DNA from: a virus
Lineage: Duplodnaviria; Caudoviricetes
IMG/VR virus record: IMGVR_UViG_3300005805_000466
Coordinates: 1 to 24,660 of that record
Direction: 5' to 3' (one strand)
DNA length: 24,660 nucleotides
The notes beneath the pieces are model-generated. The model ran no database searches and was not told the DNA's origin. It was given only the letters and a program-made list of their open reading frames with translations. Both the position numbers and the translations under genes were made by a program. Numbering within the stretch: the first letter of the stretch is position 1; each line of letters starts with the position of its first letter. Positions 2 to 24,660 of this stretch are shown piece after piece.

Positions 2-793
2 GTTCTTTTGAACAAAAATGTTACTTCTTCTCCATCTGTTAATGCTGGTATTGAAGTTGAGCGTGGTACTGAAACAAACGCATCTCTATACTGGGATGAG
101 TCAACAGACAAGTGGTATGTAAATGACGCAACTACTTCTAAACCAATTGCTTTGGTTGGAGATGCAACGTTTAATACCTTCGCAACTTTCACAGACGGAA
201 CAAATAACGCAACTCCAGATTCATCTTCAGATACATTTACATTTTCTGGTGGAACTGGTATCTCAGTTGCAGTTAACGGAACAAGCGATACACTAACAAT
301 TACTAACGATGGCGTAAGAACTATTACTGGAACAGCGCTACAAGTTATTGCTTCTGCTTCAACAGGTGCAGTGACCCTATCTTTACCACAAGATATTGCA
401 ACAACTTCCAGCCCATCATTCTCTGGTTTAACACTTACTGGAACACTTAGTGCTTCTGCAATAACATTTTTATATTCTGCTCAACAGGCTGTTGCTGCTA
501 CTGCAAGCACAAGCGGTACAGCAGAAGTTGTTGATGCATGGTCAGCAACAACATATAAGAGTGCAAAATATCTTGTTCAGATGACTAAGAGCACAGATAT
601 TGAAACTATTGAAGTTCTAGTCAACGTAGATGGAAACAATAACGTTTATATTACTGAGTATGCAGATGTTATTAGCAATGCACAACTTGGTACAACAGAT
701 GCTGATTACTCTGGCGGAAATGTTCGTCTAAAAGTAACACCAGCACAAGATGGCGTAGCAGTAAGGGTACACAGAACGCTAATCACAGCGTAA
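2..793 (+). CDS. Virion structural / tail fibre-like protein, 5'-truncated by the window edge
   Basis: Frame is open from base 2, so TTG at 8 is probably not the true start. T/S/G-rich beta-strand sequence (ASLYWDESTDKWY; VTLSLPQDIATTSSPSFSGLTL) and a C-terminal domain VDAWSATTYKSAKYLVQ...VYITEY...NVRLKVTP of the kind seen in aquatic phage virion proteins. Confidence 0.65.
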   Translation, partial: VLLNKNVTSSPSVNAGIEVERGTETNASLYWDESTDKWYVNDATTSKPIALVGDATFNTFATFTDGTNNATPDSSSDTFTFSGGTGISVAVNGTSDTLTITNDGVRTITGTALQVIASASTGAVTLSLPQDIATTSSPSFSGLTLTGTLSASAITFLYSAQQAVAATASTSGTAEVVDAWSATTYKSAKYLVQMTKSTDIETIEVLVNVDGNNNVYITEYADVISNAQLGTTDADYSGGNVRLKVTPAQDGVAVRVHRTLITA

Positions 794-798
794 TGTGA

Positions 799-825
799 CC
801 ACGAAGGGATAGTGAACTTCAGTGG
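799..825 (+). promoter_or_regulatory. RNA hairpin covering the RBS region and GTG start of the 822 gene
   Basis: CCAC(799-802)GAAG(803-806) pairs with CTTC(817-820), bulged A821, GTGG(822-825). Loop is GGATAGTGAA. Confidence 0.5.
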
Positions 826-1187
826 CAACAACGAATAAAGATTTTGTCGTAAAGGCAGGACTTAAGGTTGCCACTGGAGTTACCTTCCCAGACAATACAG
901 TTCAAACTACCGCCTTCACTGGCGGAGGACTAACTGTAGGAAGTTCTTTCCCAGGATCACCAAATAATGGTGATTTATTTTTATATACAACCACAGAGCG
1001 TATTTATTTTTATTACAATGGTGACTGGATTCCAGTTGCAACTTATTTAGATGCTCAAAGAGAGTATGACGGCAACGGAATTACATATCCAACATTATAT
1101 GCAAAACTAGACGGTGGCACTCCAAGCACTACATTTGGTAATGCTGTTCCATCAGCCGATGGGGGTAGTCCAAGTGAACAATTCTGA
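822..1187 (+). CDS. Small virion / fibre-associated protein
   Basis: GTG start; N-terminal NKDFVVKAGLKV; GVTFPDNTVQTTA and PGSPNNGDLFLYTTTERIYFYYNGDW motifs typical of fibre proteins; two C-terminal DGG motifs. Confidence 0.6.
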   Translation: MATTNKDFVVKAGLKVATGVTFPDNTVQTTAFTGGGLTVGSSFPGSPNNGDLFLYTTTERIYFYYNGDWIPVATYLDAQREYDGNGITYPTLYAKLDGGTPSTTFGNAVPSADGGSPSEQF

Positions 1188-1217: not shown

Positions 1218-1877
1218 ATGGCAACAAGAATTCAAGTGCGTAGAGGTACAGGTGCCGCATGGACTACTTCTAATCCTACGCTTGATATTGGTGAGTTTGG
1301 TTATAATACAACTACCGCTCAACTTAAGATCGGTGACGGAACCACACTTTGGAATGATCTAGATTATATTGTTAATGATGCAAGCCTTACTACAAGTCTC
1401 GGAAGTTATATTGAATTAACTGAAAAAGATGCTGCTAATGGAGTTGCCACTCTAAATGCAAATCAGAATGTATACATTCCTGGAACTGGTCTTGTAATAC
1501 AAGGTGCTACGACCAATGGTTTTGAATTAACAGTTACAGCAACAGATCCTACTGCAGATCGCACCATCACACTTCCAGATGCCACTGGAACCGTAGTTCT
1601 AGCCGACGGCAGCGGAAATGTAACTATCTCAGGAAATCTAACAGTAAGTGGTACTACAACAACTATTGATTCAAGCACTATTAATATTACTAACTCGTTT
1701 GTTTTTGAGGGTACTGCTAATGACCATGAAACAACATTAACAATAACAGATCCTACTGCAGACCGTACCATTACCCTGCCTAACGTTTCTGGTACAGTGG
1801 TTACTGCTGGCAACTTCCCATCTTTGACATGGGGCCAGATTAAAAATGGTGGAGCAGTCACCGTTCCAACATCCTAG
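1218..1877 (+). CDS. Tail fibre-type protein with Mtd/hyaluronidase-like N-terminal domain
   Basis: RIQVRRGTGAAWTTSNPTLDIGEFGYNTTTAQLKIGDGTTLWNDLDY matches the major-tropism-determinant N-terminal module; followed by two DPTADRTITLP repeats. Confidence 0.75.
   Translation: MATRIQVRRGTGAAWTTSNPTLDIGEFGYNTTTAQLKIGDGTTLWNDLDYIVNDASLTTSLGSYIELTEKDAANGVATLNANQNVYIPGTGLVIQGATTNGFELTVTATDPTADRTITLPDATGTVVLADGSGNVTISGNLTVSGTTTTIDSSTINITNSFVFEGTANDHETTLTITDPTADRTITLPNVSGTVVTAGNFPSLTWGQIKNGGAVTVPTS
1541..1762 (+). repeat. Intragenic direct repeat, 204-nt (68-aa) period
   Basis: AACAGATCCTACTGCAGA exact at 1541-1558 and 1745-1762; peptides TDPTADRTITLPDATGTVV and TDPTADRTITLPNVSGTVV. Confidence 0.9.
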
Positions 1878-4099: not shown

Positions 4100-7000
4100 A
4101 TGTCCAACCCATCGAATTTATACGCAGAGAAAGTGTTCGCAGAACACCCTACAGCCTTGTGGGCTTTGGATGATCAAGCAGACTACATAAGTTTAATTAC
4201 CGAAGCAGAACGCAGTTTTACAAGTTGGACTCTAACAAATGCGACGGCAGCGGTAACAAGTGCTCCAACTACAGAGCCATTTGAAAGTAGCGTAGTAAAT
4301 CGGCTTGCTATTGTTATTCCAGCAAATACCAGTTTTACGGTAACTTGCATTAGTACTGATCTTGTAAACTTTTCTGATCTTAATGCTGACCTTGGTACAT
4401 TTTCTATCGGTGGTTATTTCTTTGACTCTAGCGCATTGCTTCAGTCTGTCTCAATTGGATATGAATATACAGATACAACTACAGCCCTAGATGTTCAAAA
4501 TGTAAATACTTTTGATACAAACCTAAATGCCGCTTGGGGGTTTGTTTCTGGAACATTTGAAACTCCCAATGAAAATACAACAATGAGAGCAGTTGTTAAA
4601 GCAACATTTCAAGGCGGTGCTTCAACATCAAGTACATTTATTTATTTTAATGGCATTAGTGCTGGACAATGGTCAGAAGAACATAATACTGAGTCACTTG
4701 GAATTCAAACCATTTCAATTACCTCAAATATTGCTATGGCCACAACAGAAGGAATTGAGGCAGAACCTTACGGTCTTGGTGGAGATCATGGATATTATTT
4801 AGTTAATGACAATGCTCTTGTTGCTAGAAACTCTGGCATTCCGATGGTTTATGGAGCAAGCGGTGTAACAATATTAAGACCAAATGTTTCTGGAGAACCA
4901 TCATTAATAATTCCAGGAAAAGGATTTTTAAATGAGGCTGGAAGACACAAAGAATATACTGTAGAATTTTGGGCAAAAATAAATTCAAGTGCAACTACTC
5001 CAAAAAGAATATTTGGACCCATTGCTTCATCAGATGGATTATATGTTGAAAGTGGTTTTCTAACCTTAGTTATAGGTAAAACTTTTGCTTCACACTTCGT
5101 TGGTGAATGGTTTAGGCCTATGCTTATTCACATTAGAATTATTAGAAATAATGCAACGGTTCTTGTAAATGGAGAAGAAGTAATCAGTTTAAATATTACA
5201 ACAGACTCACTAACCTTGCCAGAAATATTAGATAACTCAAATGATCAACAAGATTGGCTAGGTTTTTATGCCTACGCAGACGTAACGCCAGTAGAGATTG
5301 ATTGTGTTTCTATTTATCCATACCAAGTACCAATTCCAGTAGCAAAACGTAGATGGGTATATGGCCAAGGAGTTCTTTCTCCAGAAGGAATTAACTCAGC
5401 ATATGGTGGAACATCGGCTTTTATAGATTACTCTTTTGCAGATTACACAGCAAACTATACATATCCAGATTTTGCAAATTGGAACCAAGGCTCATTTGAT
5501 AACCTTTCAACAACACCTACATATATTGGAACCCCAGACTATCAACTTCCGACGGTATTTATAGATGGAGAAGCAATACAAGACCTATATGATGACAATC
5601 AAACAATTCAGGCTGGAGCCAACAAGTTCTTAACATTTAGACCAACCACAAGTTGGAACTCAGTACATTCATATTTTAACTTCTCAAACTTTAATGTTTT
5701 AGCCGAAGAGGTAAAATCTGTATATGGTGTATTTAGTAATAATGATGTTACATCCATAAATCAAACACTCTTTAAGATTTATAACAAGGTTAACGGAAAC
5801 TATTTTAAAGCAGTTCAAAACAATAATCAACTTGTTTATAGCCTTTACTATAATGGAGCAAGCACATCTTTATACACATATAACACCATATCAGTAGATC
5901 AGGTGTTTGCCGTTGGAGTTAATATCCCAGATCTTATTACTAGGTTTGGAGGCAACATTGCTTCATTCTTTGGAAATAGAAATGGATTAGAGTTGTATGT
6001 TGCTGGAGATAGCACAGCGTCAAATACATTTGAGGGCAAGATCTATTCATTTGGATTATCTACAGCAGTAAATGCAGATGAATCTTCTGATTATTTTAGT
6101 AATGGATTTGCAGTAGCCACATCTGGACAATCATTAATTGCTTTTACTGCCAGTTATACTCTGCTGCCAACAGAGGCATATGACTCATACTTTTTAGACA
6201 TTGGAGTTGCTGGATATTGGGAAGATTACTTACCGCTTTCATATTTTGGTCAGTATGTAAAAAATGATTTAGGAAATACATTTTATGACTTAGATTTCTT
6301 GCAATTTAATATTGGTTATCCAGCACCATCAGATTTAATTGAGCAGGCATCTACTAGCACATGGACATATCAAGAATTAAAAGACACATATGAGTTTCCA
6401 GTTCAAAGAACATATAATCAGTTAGATAACTATCTGTTTACAGGTTGGGAAGACTATGCTCAGATGGCAGGGCAGACAGATAAATATTATGAATACGATA
6501 CCGAAGATGCTTCAATTAGAAGTTATGTAACGGTGCAGTATATTGCCGATGGTGCAAACGCTCCAAGATCAAACTTTACAACTACTAGAACTGCAAGAGA
6601 AGGATCTATTATTGATATAGCAGACTTCCCTGCTTGGTCAACAACAAAGTTCGAGGTAGTAGACAATACACTCATATATCCATCTAAGTCAATAGACTTT
6701 AATGATCTTGCAATAGTAACTCATCTTGATTTTAATATTCGTGGTATTTTAAGAAAACCATTAAGACTTCGTAGACTTGAACTTGCTTCACAGGCATTAA
6801 ACGATAACTCATTTAACCCAGTTGGAACAAGATTTGGTGTTGACATATTCCCGTATAAAAAGGCGGGTATTTATTATGACTACAAAGCAAAAAATCCATT
6901 CAGTATATATAAAGGAAGCACTCCATATCTATATTTAAATAAGAGCACTGGTATTAAGATTCGTGGAGATTATGACCCGCTAGTAAATAGAGGTTTGTCT

Positions 7001-7678
7001 ATTCCAGTTAATAAAAATACAGCAGATAACTATCGTGTCAGCGCATTACAAATGTGGATGAAATATGATGACAGACAGTTCCCAGAAACTCCAGTAGAAC
7101 TTTTTGAAATCAAATATCGATCAGACACCATTAAGTTTTATTTTGTTGCGGACAGCGAAACTGGAGATCGTGCCAGAATATATGCAAAGAGTTTAGAGAC
7201 GGGCGCAGATTATAATGGTTTGTCATATTATTGGAACGGTGCACTGGTAAGAGAGCCAGTTGCAACAAGAAATGAATGGGGCGTTCTTGGCATAGGATTT
7301 TCAAATGCTTTGAACTTTGATCTATTCCTTGGTGCTATTAATCTCAATGGTCAGTTTGTATTTAATAATATTGCTTTCTATCAGGCCAATAATTTGCAAC
7401 AGGTTCAGAGTACCCTTACTCGCCCATGGCAGCAGGTAATCACAGACGGTATTACAAACTTTGATTGGCAATACTGGCTAAACTCCTCAACATGGGAAGG
7501 TGTGCTTGTTATTGGGTCATCAGATTTATATGGCGTAAATCCAGTAGATGTTTATGAAACCTACATAGGAACTAATAAGATTATCTTTGATGATGACGAG
7601 GGATTGACCGTAGACGCTGATAAATTAAAGGTTTATACTAATACAACATGGACGGTTAACGTCGGTACACCAGTATAA
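4100..7678 (+). CDS. Large beta-rich virion protein, probably with concanavalin-A/LamG-like and carbohydrate-binding domains (minor tail protein)
   Basis: 1192 aa, aromatic- and S/T-rich. AEHPTALWALDD N-terminus and YTVEFWAKI...IHIRIIRNNATVLVNGEEV...EIDCVSIYPY segment resemble LamG-type jelly rolls. Good RBS. Confidence 0.6.
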   Translation: MSNPSNLYAEKVFAEHPTALWALDDQADYISLITEAERSFTSWTLTNATAAVTSAPTTEPFESSVVNRLAIVIPANTSFTVTCISTDLVNFSDLNADLGTFSIGGYFFDSSALLQSVSIGYEYTDTTTALDVQNVNTFDTNLNAAWGFVSGTFETPNENTTMRAVVKATFQGGASTSSTFIYFNGISAGQWSEEHNTESLGIQTISITSNIAMATTEGIEAEPYGLGGDHGYYLVNDNALVARNSGIPMVYGASGVTILRPNVSGEPSLIIPGKGFLNEAGRHKEYTVEFWAKINSSATTPKRIFGPIASSDGLYVESGFLTLVIGKTFASHFVGEWFRPMLIHIRIIRNNATVLVNGEEVISLNITTDSLTLPEILDNSNDQQDWLGFYAYADVTPVEIDCVSIYPYQVPIPVAKRRWVYGQGVLSPEGINSAYGGTSAFIDYSFADYTANYTYPDFANWNQGSFDNLSTTPTYIGTPDYQLPTVFIDGEAIQDLYDDNQTIQAGANKFLTFRPTTSWNSVHSYFNFSNFNVLAEEVKSVYGVFSNNDVTSINQTLFKIYNKVNGNYFKAVQNNNQLVYSLYYNGASTSLYTYNTISVDQVFAVGVNIPDLITRFGGNIASFFGNRNGLELYVAGDSTASNTFEGKIYSFGLSTAVNADESSDYFSNGFAVATSGQSLIAFTASYTLLPTEAYDSYFLDIGVAGYWEDYLPLSYFGQYVKNDLGNTFYDLDFLQFNIGYPAPSDLIEQASTSTWTYQELKDTYEFPVQRTYNQLDNYLFTGWEDYAQMAGQTDKYYEYDTEDASIRSYVTVQYIADGANAPRSNFTTTRTAREGSIIDIADFPAWSTTKFEVVDNTLIYPSKSIDFNDLAIVTHLDFNIRGILRKPLRLRRLELASQALNDNSFNPVGTRFGVDIFPYKKAGIYYDYKAKNPFSIYKGSTPYLYLNKSTGIKIRGDYDPLVNRGLSIPVNKNTADNYRVSALQMWMKYDDRQFPETPVELFEIKYRSDTIKFYFVADSETGDRARIYAKSLETGADYNGLSYYWNGALVREPVATRNEWGVLGIGFSNALNFDLFLGAINLNGQFVFNNIAFYQANNLQQVQSTLTRPWQQVITDGITNFDWQYWLNSSTWEGVLVIGSSDLYGVNPVDVYETYIGTNKIIFDDDEGLTVDADKLKVYTNTTWTVNVGTPV

Positions 7679-16009: not shown

Positions 16010-16018
16010 TGGTAAAAT
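16010..16018 (+). promoter_or_regulatory. Extended -10 promoter TGGTAAAAT (leaderless)
   Basis: Directly after the terminator; ATG 16026 lies 7 nt downstream. Confidence 0.65.
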
Positions 16019-16025
16019 GGATAAA

Positions 16026-16751
16026 ATGGCTACTGAGATTTATAAAATAGAAAAAATAAAATTAATCGATGGTACAGAATTAGAAATAACACCATTAAAG
16101 ATTAAATACTTAAGAGAGTTTATGGAAGTATTTGATGCGATTCGTGTTACAAAAAATGATCAAGAAGCAATTCTTGTTTTATCAGAATGCACAAGAATAT
16201 GTATGAAACAGTTTTATCCACAAATATCTAAAAATATTGAAATTTTAGAAGAAAACGTAGACCTTCCAACAATATATAAAATACTAAATGCTGCTGCTGG
16301 TATAAAAATAAATAGAGAATCTGAAGAACCAGTAAAACAACAAGCAGAGGAGAGTGGATCTACCTGGGATAATTTAGATCTTGCAGAGATTGAATCGGAG
16401 GCATTTTTGCTCGGTATTTGGAAAGATTATCAAGAACTAGAATTATCTATGTCTATGCCAGAATTAATGGCTACCCTTTCTAGCAAAAGAGAACTAGATT
16501 ATGAAGAAAAAAAGTTTTTAGCAGCAATTCAGGGTATTGATTTAGATGCTAATTCTAAGAGTAGTTCTGGTAAGCAAAGAGGGCAGCAAGAATGGGAAGA
16601 TCTTAAAGCAAGAGTATATAGCGGTGGTAAAGCAAGAGATGGAAATGATATTCTTGCATTACAAGGTCCCGCTGCAGAGAAGGCAGGGTTTGGTATTGGC
16701 ATGGGTATTGATTATGATGACTTGCGTGACCCTTCTTTAATGAAAAATTAA
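16026..16751 (+). CDS. Tail assembly chaperone, long (GT-like) form
   Basis: Between tube and TMP. First ~100 aa are paralogous to 16802-17131, and MATEIY aligns with MATTVY, supporting start 16026. C-terminal LLGIWKDYQELELSMSMPEL resembles T-type domains. Confidence 0.75.
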   Translation: MATEIYKIEKIKLIDGTELEITPLKIKYLREFMEVFDAIRVTKNDQEAILVLSECTRICMKQFYPQISKNIEILEENVDLPTIYKILNAAAGIKINRESEEPVKQQAEESGSTWDNLDLAEIESEAFLLGIWKDYQELELSMSMPELMATLSSKRELDYEEKKFLAAIQGIDLDANSKSSSGKQRGQQEWEDLKARVYSGGKARDGNDILALQGPAAEKAGFGIGMGIDYDDLRDPSLMKN

Positions 16752-16766
16752 AAAATAAGCGTTTTA

Positions 16767-16775
16767 TGCTATAAT
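16767..16775 (+). promoter_or_regulatory. Extended -10 promoter TGCTATAAT
   Basis: Intergenic; followed by RBS AGGAGG (16792-16797) and ATG 16802. Confidence 0.75.
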
Positions 16776-16801
16776 TACATTTAGCCTATATAGGAGGAAA
16801 A

Positions 16802-17131
16802 ATGGCAACCACGGTATATGAGAGCCAAGAACTTACTCTTATGGATGGTACAAAAATAACAGCGAGACCTTTAAAAATCTCGCTTTTGCGTCCATTCATG
16901 ACTAAGTTTGAAAAGGTAGCGGAGGTGGCAGACAACAATGAAAAGTCAATGACTCTTCTTGTTGAATGTGTGGCGATTGCTATGCAGCAATTTAATCCAG
17001 AACTCGCTGATATTAAGAAACTAGAGGAGATTTTAGATCTTCCAACAGTTTATAAGATCATTGAGTCCGCTTCAGGAGTTAAACTCCAAGACGCAAATGC
17101 CCTGCTAAATGCAGCACTTGCAACAAATTAA
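16802..17131 (+). CDS. Tail assembly chaperone, short (G-like) form
   Basis: 109 aa, directly before the TMP; paralogue of the upstream gene's N-terminal half. Confidence 0.75.
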   Translation: MATTVYESQELTLMDGTKITARPLKISLLRPFMTKFEKVAEVADNNEKSMTLLVECVAIAMQQFNPELADIKKLEEILDLPTVYKIIESASGVKLQDANALLNAALATN

Positions 17132-17155: not shown

Positions 17156-20100
17156 GTGGCTGATGTAAACGCAAATATTGGCGTAAATATTGACACCTCT
17201 AAAACTGTTGCACAATTAAAAGCACTTCGTGCAGAAATATCAAGATTCCATCAGTCTGTTTCAAAATCAAGCGCTGCTGCTGCTATGGCACAGCGAAATC
17301 TACAAACAAATTTAGTAAACTCTATAAATGCAACTGGTAAATTTCATGCCAAAATGGGCTTGGTTAGAACTTCTACAGAAGCCTTTACACATGCTCTAGA
17401 AACAAATAAACTCTCAATGCGAGAGTACTTCCGTTATGGAATGGGAGCAACTAGAACATTTGGTAGGTTCTTTAAAAAAGAATTTGACACTATTAGTCAG
17501 GTTGCTCAAGACCGTGTAAAGAGAATGCAGACCCAATATATTAAGATGGGTCGTGATGCATCTGGAGCAATGAAAGCAATTTCCGTAACCCCTACAACTT
17601 TAAACATGAAGGATTATGGAACACAGTTAGCAATAGCAGCACAAAGACAAGCGGTACTTAATCAATTATTAAAACAAGGATCTACAAATCTTCTAAACTT
17701 TGGTAAAAATACACAGTGGGCTGGCCGCCAGTTAATGGTTGGTTTTACCGTACCTCTTGCATATTTAGGTACTGCTGCTGCTAATACATTTATGAAAATT
17801 GAAGAGCAGGCAGTAAAGTTTCGTCGTGTTTATGGAGAAATGTTTACTACAAACCAAGAAACAGAAGATGCATTAAAAAATGTAAGAGATTTAGCAGAAG
17901 AATTTACTAAGTATGGTATTGCTGTTGAAAAAACTATGGAGATGGCTGCCAAGGCTGCTGCAACAGGTAAGATGGGTGCCGAACTTACCCAACAGGTAGT
18001 AAATGCAACAAGGCTTGCAGTTTTGGGTGGTGTAGAACAAGAACAGGCACTAGATACAACAATTTCTCTTACAAATACATTTGGTGTTGCAGCAGACGAA
18101 TTATCAAAGAAAATAGATTTTCTCAACGCAGTTGAAAACCAAACAGTATTAAGTATTGAAGATTTAACAATCGCTATTCCAAAAGCAGGACCAGTTGTTA
18201 AACAATTAGGCGGTAGTGTAGAAGATCTTGCATTCTTGCTTACTGCTATGCGTGAAGGCGGTATCAACGCATCTGAAGGTGCAAACGCACTAAAGTCTGG
18301 TTTGGCATCTCTTATTAATCCAACAGATAAAGCATCTAAAATGCTTGCTGGATTTGGAATCAATATTAAAGGAATTGTTGAAGCAAATAAAGGAGATGTT
18401 AAGGGAACAGTAATGGCCTTCTCTGCTGCCCTAGATACACTAGATCCTTTAAATCGTGCAAGAGCAATTGAACAGTTATTTGGTAAATTCCAATTTGCTC
18501 GTTTATCAACATTGTTTGGAAATATTACAAAAGAAGGATCACAGGCAGCCAGAGTATTTGATTTAATGGGGGCATCTGTAGAAGAACTTGCAATTCTATC
18601 TGAGCGAGAATTAAAGAAGGTAGAAGATGCAATAGGTGTTAATTTTAAAGAGGCTGTTCAACAATTAAGACTTGCGCTAGAGCCAATAGGTAAAGTATTC
18701 TTAGAAACCGTAACTCCAATTGCAAAGGCTCTTGGACAATTTTTAAGTAAATTTAATAATTTAAGTGATGGTGCTAAAAAGTTTATAGTTGTGTTTACTG
18801 TTCTTGTCGGTCTTATCGGACCAACATTCTTAATGACATTTGGTTTATTTGCAAACGCACTTGCAAATATTATTAAACTATTTACACTTATGAGGGGCGG
18901 GGTATTAAGATTAAGAGGCCAATCATCAATATTAGCAGAACAAACTAATTATTTAACAAAAGAACAAATGGAAGCAGCAACAGTTGCTGCCTCTCTTGAT
19001 CAAGCACATAATAGATTAACACAAAGATTTACATCTGAGGCTATTGCACTAGAGCAACTACGTGCAGCATTTGATAGGGCAACTGCAGCACAAACAAGAT
19101 TTGCTGCTGCAAACCCAGGAATGATGATGCCAGGATTTAGAGGAATTAAAGGTGGCGGAACAGCGCCAAGATTTTCTAGTGGAACTACTGAAGTTGTTGG
19201 TGGACAGGCAGGAAAAGACTCTGTACCAGCACTATTAACTCCTGGAGAAGCAGTTGTTCCAACAGACATTGCACAAGATGAAAGATTTAAACCTTTAATT
19301 GCAGCACTAGTAAGCGGAGATATCGCAAAGTATCAGGGTGGAACAACTAATGCTGGACAGGTAGAGGCTAGAACTAAATCTACAATGTTCTTTGATTTTG
19401 ATGATACATTGGCTAATAGTAAAAAAGCAATGGATTCATGGAAAAAGAAAAATGGTTTTTCTGGTCCAACAACTGCAGCAATGTATGCACAGTTTAATCA
19501 AGATGTAATTGATGGCAAAGTTAAAAATGTTCCTGGCATAGAAGAGAATATAGCAAAACTTAAAAAAGCACAAGCAGCAGGTTTAGATGTAAGAATATTA
19601 ACTGCAAGATATGATGATGAAGTAAGTAAAGCATCAATGAAAAAGGTTTTGTCATCACTAGGAATTAACATTGCAGATGATAAAATACATATGCGTCCAG
19701 CAGCATCTTCATTAGATGATGCAGCATTTAAACGTTCATTTGTTGAAAAATTTGCAGCAGGCACTAGAGGAAGAATTCAGTTAATTGATGACCAACCTAG
19801 AAATCTAAAGGCAGTAGAGGCATTAAGAGAAAGCCCTAAACTCAAAGGACGTATTGGTGTTATTCCAGGACCTCATCTTGTAAAATTTGAAGACCAATAC
19901 TACAATGCTAAAACTGCTAACTCTAGTAAAAATGTTAAAAAACTTTTAAACTCTTTGAAAAAAGGTTCTGATGGCAAGTATGTTTATACATTCCCAGATG
20001 GAACAGAAACACGTATTGCTCCAAGTACGATAGCAAAACAATTACAAAAATATGCTGATCGAGGAGAACCGATTGATGTTAGCAGAGTATCAAGAAATCT

Positions 20101-23100
20101 GGGTATAGGAAAAACTTATAGCAGCCCTCCATGGGTTAAAACACTAATGAAGAAAGCAGTTGCTGCTGATTCAAATATTTTTGCAGAACAAGAAGCACTT
20201 GAAAAAAGATTACAGAAACAAGGAATAACACTTAGTCCAGAACAACGTAAAAATATGTTCGGAATTGATGCAGCACATATAGTCAAAGAACTTGATGATG
20301 AGGGTAGAAAAATTTGGCGAGCAGCAAATCTTACTCCAGAACCAGGATATATAAATAAATATTTAAATGATCAAGTTGAAGGAAAAGAACTTCTTAGAAA
20401 AATACAAAATCTACCAGACTCCGAGTTAACAAAATTAGGTATTAGCAGACAAGCACTTGCTACTTTGGCTTTAGGACAGCATCCTACAACTGAAGATGAA
20501 GCAAGAACACTTCGTGGAATTGCAAAGTATCAAATTAAAACTGATCCAAGAAATCCAAGCATTTATCAGGCACACTTGGTCGATGAAGGTATTGGAGAAA
20601 GATTAAAGAGCGGTATTTATAAAAGAACTCTAAGAACTCTTGCACAAAGAGTTGATATTACAAAATCAAAAGCAGCATTGGCTGCACAAAGCAGATACGA
20701 AGCACTGCTCACTTCAAGAGAAGCAGTATTAAGAGCATCTGGAAAAGTTGATACAAGAACCGTTCCAAAGGCAGCAAATGAAAGAGCCTATGGTCCATAT
20801 GCAGGTGTTCAAGATTCAAGAAAAGGCGTAGTTGGTCCTGGAGATACAATCGTACCAAAATCTCGTCTAGCAACTCCATTTGGCTTTAGGGGTGCTCAGG
20901 CTAGATATTTACCAGGATTCCAAGATGCAACCTCAGTTGTTCCACCAGGATTCAAGGGTGGATCTGGTGCAGGACCATATGGCGTTCCAATGAGCAGTGT
21001 TGCAGCGGGATATCAAACTACCGCTCCACAAGGTGCTGCAACTCCTCCATCAGATGCAGATAAAAAAGCAATGGCAAGACAGCAAAGGGCTGGCATTGGT
21101 ATGGGTGTATCAATGGCCTCTGGAATGGTTGCAATGGGAGCAATGGCTAAAGGAAATGAAGAGTTAGCAAAGTTTGCAATGGCATTGTCTGTTGCTGCTG
21201 GTATTTTGCCACTTCTTTCTGCAAAAGTAAATATGGTTTTAATTCCTTTAATACTTATTGCTGGAGCACTTTATTCTTGGAATAGTGCAATGAAGAAGGC
21301 AAAAGAAGAAGGAAATGCTCTTGGTAAAGCATTATCAATGACAACAGAAAAACTTATTAAAATGTCAGAGATAACAGGAAAGGTAAGTGCAGCAGAAGAA
21401 CAAAATCTTAGAAGAAAAAATGTTATTGGTGGACAAACCGAGGCACAAAGAAAATCTGGACAAACAATTCTTGAAAGTGATTATGGTAAGTCTTTACTTG
21501 CAGATATTGAAGCACAAACAAAGGCTGGAGGAACATCAGAAACCATAGGTAAAAACCTAGGTATTCAAATGTCACAGGCTGTATTTTCTGGTGCGATAAG
21601 CACAGAACAGGCAAGATCTTTAGCATCAGCGCTAGGTGAAAAACTTAAAGATTATAGAATTGGTGCTGTTCTTGTTGGTGAAATGACAAGCATAATTGGA
21701 CCTAATGGAGAAAAAATAGGTCAAGATCCAATACAAACTGCAATAGATATTGATAAGAAATCTTTTGAAGATACACAAAAATTTGTTACTTCTTTAGCAA
21801 CAAAAGCATCTGAAAAAAGTAGTTTCTTTGGTTTAGGGGCAAAGGGTGGCTTTACTGAAAGAGCCGCACTTCCTGCTCTTGGAGGCATGGCTGCTGGCGC
21901 AATGATGTTTGGACCATTAGGTGCTTTAGTTGGTGGTGGCGTTGGTGGAGCAATAGCATCAATAACTGATAAAAATCTTAGCGGTATGGAGAAATTATTA
22001 GGTGTAGTTAGCGGAGGATTAGTACCAGCATTTTTTGATATTAGAGATGCAAATGCAAATTCATTAAAAATTAGTACCGCTAGTGCACAATTACTTATTC
22101 AAGAAGTTGGTAATAACCAACGAATGGCAGATGCTATCAATAAACAATTTAATGAAAAGTTAAAAATTGCTAAAACAGAAGATGAAATTAAAAAAATAGA
22201 AGATGATAGATCAAAAGCATTAACTAGACTTAATGACCAAAATAAACAACAACTAAACACCCTTGTAAAAATGAGAGATCAAATTGGTGAAGGTGGTTTT
22301 GGTGCTGCAATTAAAGACTCTGTAACAGCCCTTTATAAAGAGGGTCCAATGAAGACTTTAGCAGAAACTGTTTCTACACAGTTAGAAGAAATAACAAATA
22401 AAGATTATAAAACATATTTGCAACTAGAACTTGCAAGTGGAAACATAGACCCATTAACAATGCAAACATTAATTAACAATCCAGAAATGGAGACACGATT
22501 TAATGTTTTGGTTAAAACTATGGGAAGCACTGCTGATGCAACAATGGTTATGCAGTTGCTTACTAAAGGTGGTGCTACTGCTGAAGAAATTCCTGTTATA
22601 TTAAATATAATTGATCCAAAAGGTAAAGATCCAAAAGAAAAAGTAGAAGAAATTGCAGCAGCACTTGGTAATGTTTCACAAAGATATGGAATAACAATAG
22701 AAACAAAATCAAAGGCAGCAGCATCCGTCAAGAATTTATTTGATAGTTTAGATAAAGCAGGAATTAATTTTAAACCAGGCAAAACAAAGTTTTTAACTAA
22801 AGCACAAGTACAAGCCCTTGCAGATTATGATCCAACATATAAATATGTAATGGATAATTGGGACAAGGTAGCAGAAGGACAAGGCAAACAAACAATTAGC
22901 GTTACAGCAGTTGCTAGTATGGAAGCCGCTGGAGCAGATCAAGATACGCTTGACTTTTTCTTAGCAGCAAAAGGATCAAAAGAACAAAAATCTGTTGTAG
23001 ATTTAATGATTAATCCTCAAGTTCCAGAGGCAGCAAAACAAGGTTATGAAGCACAATATAAAAAGATTGTGGATGATGCAAAAATTTATATTGAAGAAAA

Positions 23101-24660
23101 TGCTGAAGCATTTAGAACTTGGCAAAATAGTGGAGTTATTCCTCCCACAGACGATACTGGAACAAAAGAAAGAGATACACACCTTGATGAATTATTAAAG
23201 AGGCTTAAGTTTATTCGTGATGCATCTATCAATGCTGAACGTGGTGTTAAAGAACTTATGAGGATTACTGCTGGAAAAGGTTTAAATAAATTTGGTGGTG
23301 TTCTGCAACAGTTAATGGCTGGACCAAAAGGTGGATTTAATAGAGAATTTTTATCGTTTATTGAAAACCTAGATAAAAAACAACGTGATATTTATATGAC
23401 CGAAAAGAAAGGCAAGGTCATATTAACAGAAAAAGGCAAGGCACTCAAAGAAGCATTTAATGAAAAAGCAATAGGTGAATTCCAAATAGCACAGGTACAG
23501 GCTATACAAGATACTAAGGCTCAGAATGCTGCGTTATTAAGACTTGCTGCTACTGGTATTGATTCTGCTACCGCTTTAGAAATGGTTGCTGATGCTAATC
23601 TAGCAGTTGCTTTAAATTCTAAAAATATTACTTCAACTGAAATTAAACAGATGGCAAAAGATGCTCAAGAGGCAAAAGACAGAGTAAGAGCACTTAACCT
23701 AGAATTAAGCAATACTGTTAAAACTATGACCGATAGAAGTCAGGAACTAAAAGAAACTACTGCAGTTATTGATAGAATTAAAGAGATTAATCCTAATGTT
23801 TCATCAGAATTTTTGCAAGCACTATCTTCTGATAAAACTGCAATACAAGGATTTTATGATGCGCTTTTTAAAGGTTCACAAAACAAGATACCAGATCTTA
23901 AAAAATACATAGATCAATATTTTGCAAATAATGCAGCAGAAATAACATTAAAAGCAAAGATAGATCCAAGAGTTGCTGTAGAGCAAGCACAAGAAGCATT
24001 TGATAAAGTGGCATCAAATATTGATAAATATTTAAGTGCACAAAGAGCATCTATAACTGCATCAATTGCTCCACCATCAGTTATTAGGGCTTTAGATAAA
24101 GACATTGAAGAAGCACAAGATGCTGTCAATACCGCACAAAATAAACTTGAAGGTATTAAGGATGAGACTGGAAAAACAATTGATAATTATCAAACTGAAA
24201 TAGATAATTTAAGACTTGCTCTTGATGCTGGATTAGAAATTGAAATAAGAAAACTAAGTAATCAAATAAAAGCAGAACAAGATAAGATTGCTGCAGAGTT
24301 TGATAAACCACTAGAGGGTCTAAAACGTAATATTGAAGATATTCAGCGTGGTATTGAAATAAACTTTACAAGACCAATAGAGGAACTAAATAAACAAATA
24401 GAGTTAATTCAAAGAGATGTAGAGTTAAACTTTGAAAGACCTATAGCAATTCTTAATGAGGAATCATCAGATCTTGCTAACGAACTTACTCTTATGGACA
24501 AAGTTGCTGAGTCCATTAATAAAAAATATGATGAGCAGGCTGCAGCGCTACAAAAAGTTTCTGACATTAACCAAGATATTGCTGATCAACAGAAGAGTCA
24601 ACTTGATGTTGCCAGCGCATTAAGCCGAGGAGATGTTGCTGCTGCTGCTCGTTCTGTACA
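17156..24660 (+). CDS. Tape measure protein (>2500 aa, 3'-truncated) with embedded enzyme domains
   Basis: RBS AGAGGTG 17143-17149, GTG 17156 (MADVNANIGVNIDTS...). No in-frame stop in the segments I translated, including the last line; absence from the ORF track is consistent with no stop before the edge. TP901-type TMP core near 17800-18500 (FLNAVENQTVLSIEDL...GGSVEDLAFLLTAMREGGINASEGANALKSGL), hydrophobic segments and long coiled coils. Confidence 0.93.
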   Translation, partial: MADVNANIGVNIDTSKTVAQLKALRAEISRFHQSVSKSSAAAAMAQRNLQTNLVNSINATGKFHAKMGLVRTSTEAFTHALETNKLSMREYFRYGMGATRTFGRFFKKEFDTISQVAQDRVKRMQTQYIKMGRDASGAMKAISVTPTTLNMKDYGTQLAIAAQRQAVLNQLLKQGSTNLLNFGKNTQWAGRQLMVGFTVPLAYLGTAAANTFMKIEEQAVKFRRVYGEMFTTNQETEDALKNVRDLAEEFTKYGIAVEKTMEMAAKAAATGKMGAELTQQVVNATRLAVLGGVEQEQALDTTISLTNTFGVAADELSKKIDFLNAVENQTVLSIEDLTIAIPKAGPVVKQLGGSVEDLAFLLTAMREGGINASEGANALKSGLASLINPTDKASKMLAGFGINIKGIVEANKGDVKGTVMAFSAALDTLDPLNRARAIEQLFGKFQFARLSTLFGNITKEGSQAARVFDLMGASVEELAILSERELKKVEDAIGVNFKEAVQQLRLALEPIGKVFLETVTPIAKALGQFLSKFNNLSDGAKKFIVVFTVLVGLIGPTFLMTFGLFANALANIIKLFTLMRGGVLRLRGQSSILAEQTNYLTKEQMEAATVAASLDQAHNRLTQRFTSEAIALEQLRAAFDRATAAQTRFAAANPGMMMPGFRGIKGGGTAPRFSSGTTEVVGGQAGKDSVPALLTPGEAVVPTDIAQDERFKPLIAALVSGDIAKYQGGTTNAGQVEARTKSTMFFDFDDTLANSKKAMDSWKKKNGFSGPTTAAMYAQFNQDVIDGKVKNVPGIEENIAKLKKAQAAGLDVRILTARYDDEVSKASMKKVLSSLGINIADDKIHMRPAASSLDDAAFKRSFVEKFAAGTRGRIQLIDDQPRNLKAVEALRESPKLKGRIGVIPGPHLVKFEDQYYNAKTANSSKNVKKLLNSLKKGSDGKYVYTFPDGTETRIAPSTIAKQLQKYADRGEPIDVSRVSRNLGIGKTYSSPPWVKTLMKKAVAADSNIFAEQEALEKRLQKQGITLSPEQRKNMFGIDAAHIVKELDDEGRKIWRAANLTPEPGYINKYLNDQVEGKELLRKIQNLPDSELTKLGISRQALATLALGQHPTTEDEARTLRGIAKYQIKTDPRNPSIYQAHLVDEGIGERLKSGIYKRTLRTLAQRVDITKSKAALAAQSRYEALLTSREAVLRASGKVDTRTVPKAANERAYGPYAGVQDSRKGVVGPGDTIVPKSRLATPFGFRGAQARYLPGFQDATSVVPPGFKGGSGAGPYGVPMSSVAAGYQTTAPQGAATPPSDADKKAMARQQRAGIGMGVSMASGMVAMGAMAKGNEELAKFAMALSVAAGILPLLSAKVNMVLIPLILIAGALYSWNSAMKKAKEEGNALGKALSMTTEKLIKMSEITGKVSAAEEQNLRRKNVIGGQTEAQRKSGQTILESDYGKSLLADIEAQTKAGGTSETIGKNLGIQMSQAVFSGAISTEQARSLASALGEKLKDYRIGAVLVGEMTSIIGPNGEKIGQDPIQTAIDIDKKSFEDTQKFVTSLATKASEKSSFFGLGAKGGFTERAALPALGGMAAGAMMFGPLGALVGGGVGGAIASITDKNLSGMEKLLGVVSGGLVPAFFDIRDANANSLKISTASAQLLIQEVGNNQRMADAINKQFNEKLKIAKTEDEIKKIEDDRSKALTRLNDQNKQQLNTLVKMRDQIGEGGFGAAIKDSVTALYKEGPMKTLAETVSTQLEEITNKDYKTYLQLELASGNIDPLTMQTLINNPEMETRFNVLVKTMGSTADATMVMQLLTKGGATAEEIPVILNIIDPKGKDPKEKVEEIAAALGNVSQRYGITIETKSKAAASVKNLFDSLDKAGINFKPGKTKFLTKAQVQALADYDPTYKYVMDNWDKVAEGQGKQTISVTAVASMEAAGADQDTLDFFLAAKGSKEQKSVVDLMINPQVPEAAKQGYEAQYKKIVDDAKIYIEENAEAFRTWQNSGVIPPTDDTGTKERDTHLDELLKRLKFIRDASINAERGVKELMRITAGKGLNKFGGVLQQLMAGPKGGFNREFLSFIENLDKKQRDIYMTEKKGKVILTEKGKALKEAFNEKAIGEFQIAQVQAIQDTKAQNAALLRLAATGIDSATALEMVADANLAVALNSKNITSTEIKQMAKDAQEAKDRVRALNLELSNTVKTMTDRSQELKETTAVIDRIKEINPNVSSEFLQALSSDKTAIQGFYDALFKGSQNKIPDLKKYIDQYFANNAAEITLKAKIDPRVAVEQAQEAFDKVASNIDKYLSAQRASITASIAPPSVIRALDKDIEEAQDAVNTAQNKLEGIKDETGKTIDNYQTEIDNLRLALDAGLEIEIRKLSNQIKAEQDKIAAEFDKPLEGLKRNIEDIQRGIEINFTRPIEELNKQIELIQRDVELNFERPIAILNEESSDLANELTLMDKVAESINKKYDEQAAALQKVSDINQDIADQQKSQLDVASALSRGDVAAAARSV
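19382..19870 (+). other. HAD-superfamily phosphatase domain (PNKP 3'-phosphatase-like) inside the TMP
   Basis: Motif I FFDFDDTL (19388-19411), motif II ILTAR (19595-19609), HMRP...DDAAFK (Lys at 19730), motif IV LIDDQPRN (DD at 19787-19792). Confidence 0.85.
20264..20368 (+). other. His-Me finger (HNH-like) nuclease motif inside the TMP
   Basis: IDAAHIVKELDDEGRKIWRAANLTPEPGYINKYLN: DxxH ... NLxP ... N spacing of beta-beta-alpha-metal nucleases. Confidence 0.55.
24299..24480 (+). repeat. 22-residue (66-nt) Pro-punctuated amphipathic repeats in the TMP
   Basis: FDKPLEGLKRNIEDIQRGIEIN / FTRPIEELNKQIELIQRDVELN / FERPIAILNEESSDLAN; Phe codons at 24299, 24365 and 24431. Confidence 0.8.

Follow-up and report, generated by a model that had tools for sequence, protein, structure and literature searches.

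We found that the tape measure protein (TMP) of an actinobacterial phage from a lake has an exchangeable slot for enzyme-like domains, which starts at a conserved box and lies between two hydrophobic stretches (H1 and H2). Since the swapped cargo is located between these stretches, the phage tail probably introduces ready-made enzymes into the host. We consider it somewhat probable that the enzymes of the TMP loop are delivered to the host cytoplasm at injection. A description of this TMP slot was not found in the literature searched. The whole stretch of DNA analysed (the window) is 24,660 nucleotides long, and its features are listed in Table 1.

The TMP reading frame is stop-free over 17156-24658, and the TMPs of relatives are ~2,300-3,600 aa long. 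Pfam PF10145 matches residues 245-443 above its cut-off (E 3.6e-24), and phrog_10030 matches the protein with E 4.8e-99. This PF10145 core lies in a long coiled-coil protein, as in siphophage TMPs of the TP901 family, and related proteins carry the name TP901-family TMP. The gene also has the position of a TMP, with tail chaperones upstream and a distal tail gene downstream. The two chaperone-like ORFs are 43% identical to each other over 95 aa, and are located where chaperones are annotated in phages Yaboi and Trina. The same ~210-aa tail gene came next after the TMP in 59 of 61 complete loci, whatever the cargo, and in the remaining two the next ORF was a continuation of the TMP past a stop. 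No immunity gene was found directly downstream of the TMP in these 61 loci. The TMP family is large: of 7,993 proteins scored, 2,937 fall within E<=1e-30. A Pfam scan of 17 of 45 whole distant TMPs returned PF10145 plus one LysM, and nothing else.

Table 1. Features of the TMP gene and its surroundings, in positions of the window
Feature	Position	Strand	TMP residues	Remarks
Two tail-chaperone-like ORFs	16017..17131	+		244 aa and 109 aa, directly upstream of TMP
TMP gene	17156..24660	+		not closed within the window; at least 2,501 aa
First hydrophobic stretch (H1)	18782..18874	+	543-573	31 uncharged residues, Gly-Pro at centre
Conserved junction box	19172..19342	+	673-729	57 aa, bounded by two [FY]xxG[TGS] motifs
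HAD phosphatase	19373..19864	+	740-903	Pnkp 3'-phosphatase type
Subdomain A0	19889..20113	+		small, beta-hairpin/helical; precedes module A in several relatives
Module A	20114..20650	+	987-1165	folded domain; conserved His, D/E, Asn
Basic G/P-rich spacer	20651..21088	+		may hold a degenerate second box (2.0 bits here, weak)
Second hydrophobic stretch (H2)	21089..21292	+	1312-1379	three segments, each ~17-22 residues

The cassette is continuous with the TMP, as originally predicted, without a stop or frameshift. The record is metagenomic and the whole TMP gene lies on no single contig, which would be compatible with an assembly chimera or a decayed insert. But contigs from another sample of the same study bridged 18902-20459 and 20448-21842 without gaps, and those of a second study covered 19285-19857 and 19851-20927, likewise gap-free. 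The order HAD-A0-A is repeated in a 66%-identical TMP (P0078), and HAD and an A-type module occur together in P0002, P0003, and L081. The bridging contigs and the repeated module order refute the chimera or decayed insert, to which we give hardly any credence.

To define the slot, we compared related TMPs and found conserved flanks around exchanged contents, in agreement with the swappable slot that had been proposed. Between L038 and L039, the identity was 88-100% over residues 1-700, 14-34% over 751-1050, and 90-98% over 1101-1350. Identity likewise collapsed after the box and recovered near H2 in the pairs L036/L041, L001/L053, and L016/L017. We identified 12 module combinations in 67 complete slots; this tally covers 67 of 80 loci and leaves out four incomplete in the slot, three ending before the box, and six with box variants missed by the search pattern. 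By eye, the six box-variant loci bear A- or B-like inserts. A HipA/PI4K-like kinase was found in 28 of the 67 slots and a cytidylyltransferase-like domain in 4, and PF01467 scored above cut-off in relatives at the slot position of HAD itself. One slot can hold up to three modules (e.g., NMNAT-like, A, and kinase), and many hold just one A or B module without an assigned family. The tree of the N-terminal TMP region (61 rows, omitting nine incomplete loci and identical N-terminal rows) revealed at least 11 A-to-B changes and at least 7 kinase changes.

In the kinase-like module, the Lys, Glu, DxD..N, and Asp residues are invariant, and dN/dS was 0.09-0.42 in eight pairs. Its neighbours in the ESM atlas were LepB_N, HipA_2, and PI3_PI4, at 0.92-0.93. 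Pfam assigned no kinase family to any of 20 members, so the kinase call is based on the motifs and the ESM atlas. Comparison of this module, and likewise of the whole cassette, with PDB sequences gave nothing meaningful.

The AlphaFold models (pLDDT 87.6 for residues 737-1176 and 93.6 for module A) revealed globular, enzyme-like folds in the expected region, and the HAD phosphatase proposed for the cassette was confirmed. It matches phrog_415 'polynucleotide kinase' (E 4.8e-17), to which phage polynucleotide kinases also belong. The closest structure to the HAD model is the T4 Pnkp 3'-phosphatase 5uj0 (Z 13.0, rmsd 2.8, 132 aligned), followed by T4 Pnkp 1ltq and Pnkp1 of the Pnkp1-Rnl-Hen1 complex (4xrp), both with Z 12.2. 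Identity to the Pnkp enzymes is only 11-15%, and unlike them the cassette HAD is embedded in a predicted virion protein and has no 5'-kinase or ligase. The HAD catalytic motifs are DxD, S/T, K, and DD; here D747/D749, T816, R818, K859, and D878/D879 are intact, and all of these apart from R818 were scored as kept in 6/6 HAD copies, two of which are identical over the domain. The dN/dS of the pair L081/L082 was 0.17. Searching IMG/VR with the domain alone confirmed no relatives from 14 pattern matches, and a three-sequence HAD alignment found two.

We found no 5'-kinase (P-loop) domain in the cassette by Pfam, PHROG, slot comparison, or the fold model, and no RNA ligase. RNA ligase PF09511 was found in none of five related records, where the control likewise had no match and the window is just 24.7 kb. 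A role of the phosphatase in tRNA or RNA repair would lack partners, since the cassette contains neither a kinase nor a ligase. HAD would work at most like the phosphatase half of Pnkp, most likely cleaving 3'-phosphates off nucleotides or nicked nucleic acid.

Module A corresponds to the part originally described as HNH-like. The claim stood insofar as the domain is well folded with conserved His and Asn, but no nuclease match was obtained from Pfam, PDB, Foldseek, or VIA. His1041 and D/E1062 are conserved in 33/33 rows and Asn1067 in 32/33, and Asn1071 is nearly invariant. In module numbering, strand 51-55 ends in His55 (His1041), strand 73-77 bears D/E76, and helix 78-88 bears Asn81 (Asn1067), forming a strand-strand-helix unit. 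The HNH (beta-beta-alpha-metal) motif consists of a His ending strand 1, a second strand, and then an Asn-bearing helix, and module A has this layout of residues and secondary structure. No HNH family was present among the 25 most frequent Pfam matches listed, and PDB sequences gave nothing meaningful. Foldseek against PDB found no matches at E<=0.001 (T4 endonuclease VII at E 1.3), and the best VIA match (Z 4.5, helical) and a Cas9 chain (Z 2.9) were below significance.

The sole match of module A in BFVD was a TMP of its own family (TM 0.92), and a usable match was absent from the ESM atlas. These negative fold searches do not by themselves argue for a new fold. Among 1.84 billion representatives there were 45 matches, 41 of which also matched the TMP N-terminus, carried the box, or both. 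None of 79 pattern matches in 185,579 GTDB genomes was confirmed, in a weak search with a single pattern. The dN/dS was 0.05-0.19 in eight close module-A pairs, near 1 with few changes in the pair L033/L043, and 0.33-0.49 at near-saturated dS between the window and its relatives. Modules A and B are new conserved domains; their union in one family was rejected at the profile level (hhalign probability ~1% or less). As the most probable function of module A we propose a metal-dependent nuclease or phosphodiesterase.

The cassettes carry a net positive charge (+6.1 per 100 aa), compared with +1.2 and -0.1 in the two flanks. This charge, and a core module A without an assigned enzyme family, would also fit a variable loop serving mainly as a recognition surface, either for an inner-membrane host protein or for escape from TMP sensing, with enzyme activity secondary. 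Regions of the TMP determine which host proteins are used and whether SNIPE is escaped (PMC13190303). However, the HAD, kinase, and A modules have invariant residues of catalytic type and evolve under purifying selection, and whole unrelated enzyme folds are exchanged rather than surface residues drifting. We thus regard recognition as an improbable main role of the loop.

The membrane topology was judged from hydropathy alone. Both hydrophobic segments were found where they had been placed before (~18782-18890 and ~21090-21280), the first as an uncharged run and the second as three segments. The equivalents of H1 have 27-31 uncharged residues in 12/12 TMPs inspected, and BillNye and Yaboi have a similar run. 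H1 could cross the membrane once over its whole length or fold into a short hairpin. The mean net charge is +1.3 before H1 and +2.2 after it, a difference too small for the positive-inside rule to discriminate well. The three segments of H2 would place the H1-H2 loop on the opposite side from the TMP C-terminus. In the TMP of TP901-1, the loop between two hydrophobic regions was predicted to be cytoplasmic (PMC5099701), and lambda TMP was labelled by TurboID-ManZ at injection (PMC13190303).

If H1 were a two-pass hairpin, the loop might remain outside the cytoplasmic membrane, its enzymes acting in the cell wall space like the usual TMP hydrolases. HAD class B/C acid phosphatases, which also occur among the structural neighbours of the HAD domain, would agree with this. 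But Pnkp phosphatases rank first among the HAD matches, and H2 would set the loop opposite the C-terminus. Kinase-like and cytidylyltransferase-like cargo requires ATP or other NTPs, so its presence at the same slot favours action in the cytoplasm. An outside location is therefore very doubtful.

Mycobacteriophage TMPs bear embedded cell-wall hydrolase motifs. Among the TMPs compared, those of BillNye (MG757153), Yaboi (MH727564; Streptomyces), and Trina (MF668286; Rhodococcus) share 27-31% N-terminal identity and both hydrophobic stretches with the present protein, and have a box homologue just ahead of C-terminal cargo. They differ in that a low-complexity linker of 140-440 aa without modules of this set forms the H1-H2 loop and the cargo is C-terminal, by eye lysozyme-like plus an M23-like peptidase. 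The box has instead been duplicated into the loop of the present TMP, where folds of nucleotide- and protein-acting type come after it. The plain loop and the C-terminal hydrolase-like cargo of the three phages agree with the C-terminus being outside and the loop inside. By eye, the C-terminal cargo of the relative L099 has an HExxH motif.

The cassette had been described as bounded by G/P-rich linkers. This applies to the downstream spacer, but the upstream one is the conserved box. The box profile matches all 77 loci whose TMP extends that far (80 related loci in all), and complete relatives have a second copy near the TMP C-terminus. The profile of the C-terminal copy scored 14.4 bits on lambda gpH, compared to 1.2 for the best of 200 shuffles; the profile of the internal copy alone did not match gpH. 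By this profile comparison, the box is homologous to gpH 732-777. The ~14-kDa gpHC is cut from the glycine-rich region of gpH at an exact site that is not known, and it remains in the lambda particle (PMC12617516). The computed masses are 12.8 kDa for gpH 732-853 and 13.9 kDa for gpH 720-853, placing the box homology close to the predicted start of this fragment. In lambda gpH, by contrast, a single box copy lies close to the C-terminus, and the protein is not known to contain an enzyme. The box is only a candidate for the cleavage element.

This homology and the agreement in mass raise the alternative that the cassette is excised at the box during tail assembly, and either is shed or works at a late stage in the producing cell, instead of being injected. 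In L058-L062 and L070 the cargo has a box on either side, and in L004 and L093 boxes likewise bracket a second slot, at the C-terminus. Moreover, a tail adds 0.145 nm per TMP residue (PMC5099701), so an extended 610-aa cassette would add ~90 nm and tail length would differ by cargo, which argues against delivery; excision would abolish this cost. However, gpHC stays in the particle, and a late-acting enzyme gains nothing from a position between membrane stretches. In most family members the downstream box is merely degenerate, scoring >0 bits in 27/68 real spacers versus 88/1,360 shuffles. We consider excision unlikely, though it is the strongest rival to delivery into the cytoplasm.

Other virion-borne effectors resemble this arrangement in part. 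Polyvalent and MuF-fused effectors, as their main texts describe them, are virion-borne and made up of exchangeable kinase, GNAT, ART, NTase, and peptidase domains; injection with the DNA was proposed (PMC5512222, PMC9503650). Like the polyvalent proteins (Iyer et al. 2017), the present TMP has several conflict enzymes in one polypeptide, here predicted to be virion-borne; the carriers described there are head or pilot proteins, in contrast to a TMP loop between membrane stretches. The word 'Tape' is absent from both main texts. MuF polymorphic toxins also combine a conserved carrier with a variable domain, but here the slot is internal rather than C-terminal and no cognate immunity gene lies directly downstream. 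Sle1 and Tme (PMC13277306), TMP-like effectors in contractile injection systems of actinobacteria, combine a TMP-related coiled coil, membrane segments, and a tube-packaged exchangeable variable domain. They serve bacterial nanomachines and have their domains at the C-terminus, and an immunity gene accompanies one of them, whereas the present protein is a tailed-phage ruler whose slot is internal and which no immunity gene adjoins.

Cytoplasmic delivery of the loop enzymes is favoured because of the ATP-dependent cargo in relatives, the three-segment H2, and the TMP precedents. During assembly, the chaperones would maintain the TMP with its cargo in an unfolded state within the tail. After ejection, H1 and the three-pass H2 would insert in the host membrane with the loop inside, and the refolded domains would act in the cytoplasm ahead of phage gene expression. 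The cargo may be active while tethered at the DNA entry site, or cleavage at the lambda-gpH-like box may release it. In relatives, the kinase and nucleotidyltransferase might modify host proteins or rebuild a nucleotide cofactor such as NAD+. The cassettes would thus be early counter-defence and takeover tools, exchanged as hosts change.

A broader proposal, which we hold tentatively and at slightly less than even confidence, is that in long-tailed phages that infect the dominant Actinobacteria of fresh waters the cytoplasmic TMP loop is a general injection port for proteins, where rotating enzymes, fenced and perhaps released by lambda-gpH-like boxes, disarm defence at DNA entry. These enzymes would include a 3'-phosphatase, a new His-metal nuclease family, a HipA/PI4K-like kinase, and an NMNAT-like transferase, on a backbone common to thousands of TMP variants.

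To our knowledge, few proteins are injected by siphophages, and the known TMP enzymes target the cell wall. If true, delivery from the loop would be a new route for counter-defence before transcription, where TMP-sensing defences such as SNIPE act, and the loop would be a natural, length-tolerant graft site for tail-borne protein delivery. The box gives a testable candidate for the element at which lambda gpH is cleaved, and cultivated Streptomyces phages, which share the backbone with an empty loop, offer a practical test system.

The 24,660-base window holds portal, protease, capsid and tail genes (Pfam and PHROG matches). Its last ORF encodes the tape measure protein (TMP), matched by PF10145 (E 3.6e-24) and by TMP PHROGs (best E 4.8e-99). 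DNA near-identical to the window was found in lake and freshwater metagenomes from at least 3 studies. Among cultivated phages, the nearest infect Streptomyces and Rhodococcus and are about 25-31% identical. The whiB gene, described as a marker for assigning freshwater phages to Actinobacteria (PMC6802176), scored above cut-off in 5/5 related records tested, 3 of which are at least 90% complete (101-110 kb). Neither Pfam nor PHROGs matched a 1,192-aa ORF (4100-7678) that separates the class II ribonucleotide reductase from the portal region. The two tail-chaperone-like ORFs share 43% identity over 95 aa, and the pair looks like a gene duplication in place of the G/GT programmed frameshift annotated in the Streptomyces phage Yaboi.

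Features of the TMP gene and its neighbours (TMP residues are counted from position 17156)
Feature	Window position	TMP residues	Strand	Description
Tail-chaperone-like ORF	16017-16751		+	244 aa; phrog_10504 and phrog_10474 joined in frame
Tail-chaperone-like ORF	16802-17131		+	109 aa; separate phrog_10504 copy
TMP ORF	17156 to window end		+	2,501 stop-free codons; last ORF, open at end
First hydrophobic stretch (H1)		543-573		31 uncharged residues
Box		673-729		57 aa; [FY]xxG[TGS] motif at both ends
HAD domain		740-903		phrog_415, E 4.8e-17
Module A		987-1165		
Second hydrophobic stretch (H2)		1312-1379		three segments
Third hydrophobic stretch	21875-21964	1574-1603		glycine-zipper-like

The original prediction placed an enzyme cassette between two hydrophobic stretches, in frame with the TMP, and both the stretches and the open frame were found there. 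Contigs from a second sample bridge 18902-20459 and 20448-21842 without gaps, and contigs from another study span 19285-20927 as two overlapping pieces; no single contig among the pieces listed crosses the whole TMP gene. Because gap-free contigs of another sample and another study cover the junctions, the fusion is no artefact, and we consider an artefactual origin of the arrangement extremely improbable. In two related loci (L030 and L053), a stop after H2 interrupts the TMP frame, which resumes in the next ORF, through either an assembly error or a natural split.

A HAD phosphatase lies between H1 and H2, as claimed. Its structure model is confident (pLDDT 87.6) and has a Pnkp-type fold; the top matches among 48,161 chains were T4 Pnkp 3'-phosphatase (Z 13.0), Pnkp1 (12.2) and T4 Pnk (12.2), and Foldseek returned other HAD phosphatases. 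The motif residues D747/D749, T816, R818, K859 and D878/D879 are intact in 6/6 HAD copies found (the window, P0002, P0003/L082, L081, P0078, and P0027, which is identical to L082 over the HAD). The window's nearest relatives on the N-terminal TMP tree, P0002 and P0003, have the HAD in common with it but carry another subtype of module A, and the more distant P0078 keeps the same order of HAD, small subdomain A0 and module A. A TMP backbone scan confirmed 584 of 600 pattern hits; since 0/80 of the best loci kept carry the HAD, it is a rare slot option.

We compared the region across TMP relatives, for which a protein search gave 2,937 at E<=1e-30 (of 7,993 scored). Identity between L038 and L039 falls from 88-100% (aa 1-700) to 14-34% (aa 751-1050) and returns to 90-98% (aa 1101-1350); in L036/L041, L001/L053 and L016/L017 it likewise collapses directly after the box. 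The 67 complete slots hold 12 module combinations (A-type 32, B-type 29, B3 6, kinase-like 28, cytidylyltransferase-like 4), and an A- or B-type module was present in 115/115 further proteins mapped. The cytidylyltransferase-like module (PF01467, E 3.4e-10) occupies the position of the HAD in the window. On a 61-row N-terminal TMP tree, a quick tree without shuffle control, the core module switched from one type to the other (A or B) no fewer than 11 times, and there were 7 kinase changes. The proposal of a swappable enzyme slot with conserved flanks is thus well supported. As an alternative to injected enzymes, the loop could chiefly be a recognition surface, which we regard as quite unlikely; by codon comparison, slot modules are mostly under purifying selection, with dN/dS of 0.17 for the HAD (L081 vs L082), 0.09-0.42 in 8 kinase-like pairs and 0.05-0.19 in 8 close module A pairs. 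For one module A pair the ratio is close to 1, and for the distant pairs that include the window it is 0.33-0.49.

The kinase-like label follows from invariant residues (Lys, Glu, DxD..N and Asp) and atlas neighbours (LepB_N, HipA_2 and PI3_PI4 at 0.92-0.93); Pfam named no kinase family. The module lies within ORFs having the TMP N-terminal region at 79/80 kinase loci. At least 37 of the 80 belong to a more distant TMP clade (L111-L165, e.g. L116:3975-12353), ordered as a tandem box (~aa 905-990), a ~360-aa domain without family, the kinase and a further domain without family. The B-type modules (e.g. L008:7440-8123 and relatives) form a further new family of the slot, with invariant His and Asp and three mutually related subtypes; no relatedness to module A was detectable.

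Modelled alone, module A gives a confident fold (pLDDT 93.6), on which an independently modelled family TMP superposes at TM 0.92. His1041 (33/33), D/E1062 (33/33), Asn1067 (32/33) and Asn1071 (30/33) are positioned on a strand-strand-helix unit, which we take to resemble the beta-beta-alpha-metal nuclease arrangement. Of the predicted HNH-like motif, the folded domain with conserved His, Asp/Glu and Asn stood; profile and fold searches gave no significant match to an HNH or other nuclease, so module A is a candidate nuclease or phosphodiesterase. It is essentially confined to the TMP setting, because 41 of 45 matches among 1.84 billion representatives carry the TMP N-terminal match and/or the box.

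The first supposed G/P-rich linker proved to be this conserved box, of which complete relatives carry another copy close to the C-terminus. Cargo in a second slot after a late copy (L004:15174-17417, L033:12861-15221, L043:18383-20929, L093:13128-15047, L099:11697-12875, L154:12126-13061) resembles, by eye, GNAT, ADP-ribosyltransferase, PI4K-type kinase and HExxH metallopeptidase; its only Pfam match is a weak GNAT (E 0.033). The C-terminal-copy profile matches TMPs of Trina, Yaboi, BillNye and LilMcDreamy, and scores 14.4 bits on lambda gpH 732-777 (<=1.2 in 200 shuffles); the internal-copy profile matches LilMcDreamy and Trina only. A ~14-kDa C-terminal fragment of gpH is reported to be cut off somewhere within a glycine-rich region and retained in the particle (PMC12617516); gpH 720-853 computes to 13.9 kDa. 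This makes the box a candidate mark for cutting or docking; being a repeat, it could also promote recombination. Excision of the cassette in the producer cell is an unlikely alternative to injection.

If the C-terminal end faces outward and H2 makes three membrane passes, the H1-H2 loop would be inside. Against injection of the loop stand a topology drawn from hydropathy, the weak charge bias around the stretches, the ~90 nm of additional tail needed, a phosphatase without repair partners and core modules without assigned family. Many relatives also have a hydrophobic stretch ~230 aa downstream of H2. Cargo acting outside the membrane is very unlikely in our estimate; the kinase and nucleotidyltransferase cargo requires cytoplasmic nucleotides. 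In the cultivated relatives BillNye, Yaboi (Streptomyces) and Trina (Rhodococcus), the C-terminal TMP enzymes look by eye like cell-wall hydrolases and a plain low-complexity linker joins the two stretches, whereas the window's loop holds the HAD and module A. The TP901-1 TMP likewise has two such regions; its loop is predicted to be cytoplasmic and its first region is essential (PMC5099701), and the lambda TMP is described as labelled from ManZ during injection, at the site of SNIPE nuclease attack (PMC13190303). We rejected a MuF-type polymorphic toxin system because no immunity gene directly follows the TMP in 59/61 complete loci; unfolding maintained by chaperones could stand in for immunity.

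Searches of full-text literature, with most subscription papers outside its coverage, turned up no TMP loop described as carrying a kinase, phosphatase or nucleotidyltransferase. The word 'tape' is absent from the main text of PMC5512222 (polyvalent proteins) and PMC9503650 (NAD+ survey), whose supplements may list such fusions; PMC7824862 and bioRxiv 10.64898/2026.05.27.728243 serve as background only. Precedents exist for the parts: TMP hydrolases, injected polyvalent effectors and TMP-like effectors of contractile injection systems (CIS). Actinobacterial injection systems are described as packaging TMP-like effectors with exchangeable domains, which then refold (PMC13277306), and phages as beating defence by rebuilding NAD+ with an adenylyltransferase (PMC13464706). 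Taken together, we slightly favour injection of the TMP-loop cargo: the H1-H2 loop would lie on the cytoplasmic side, where the cargo enzymes may act early after injection.
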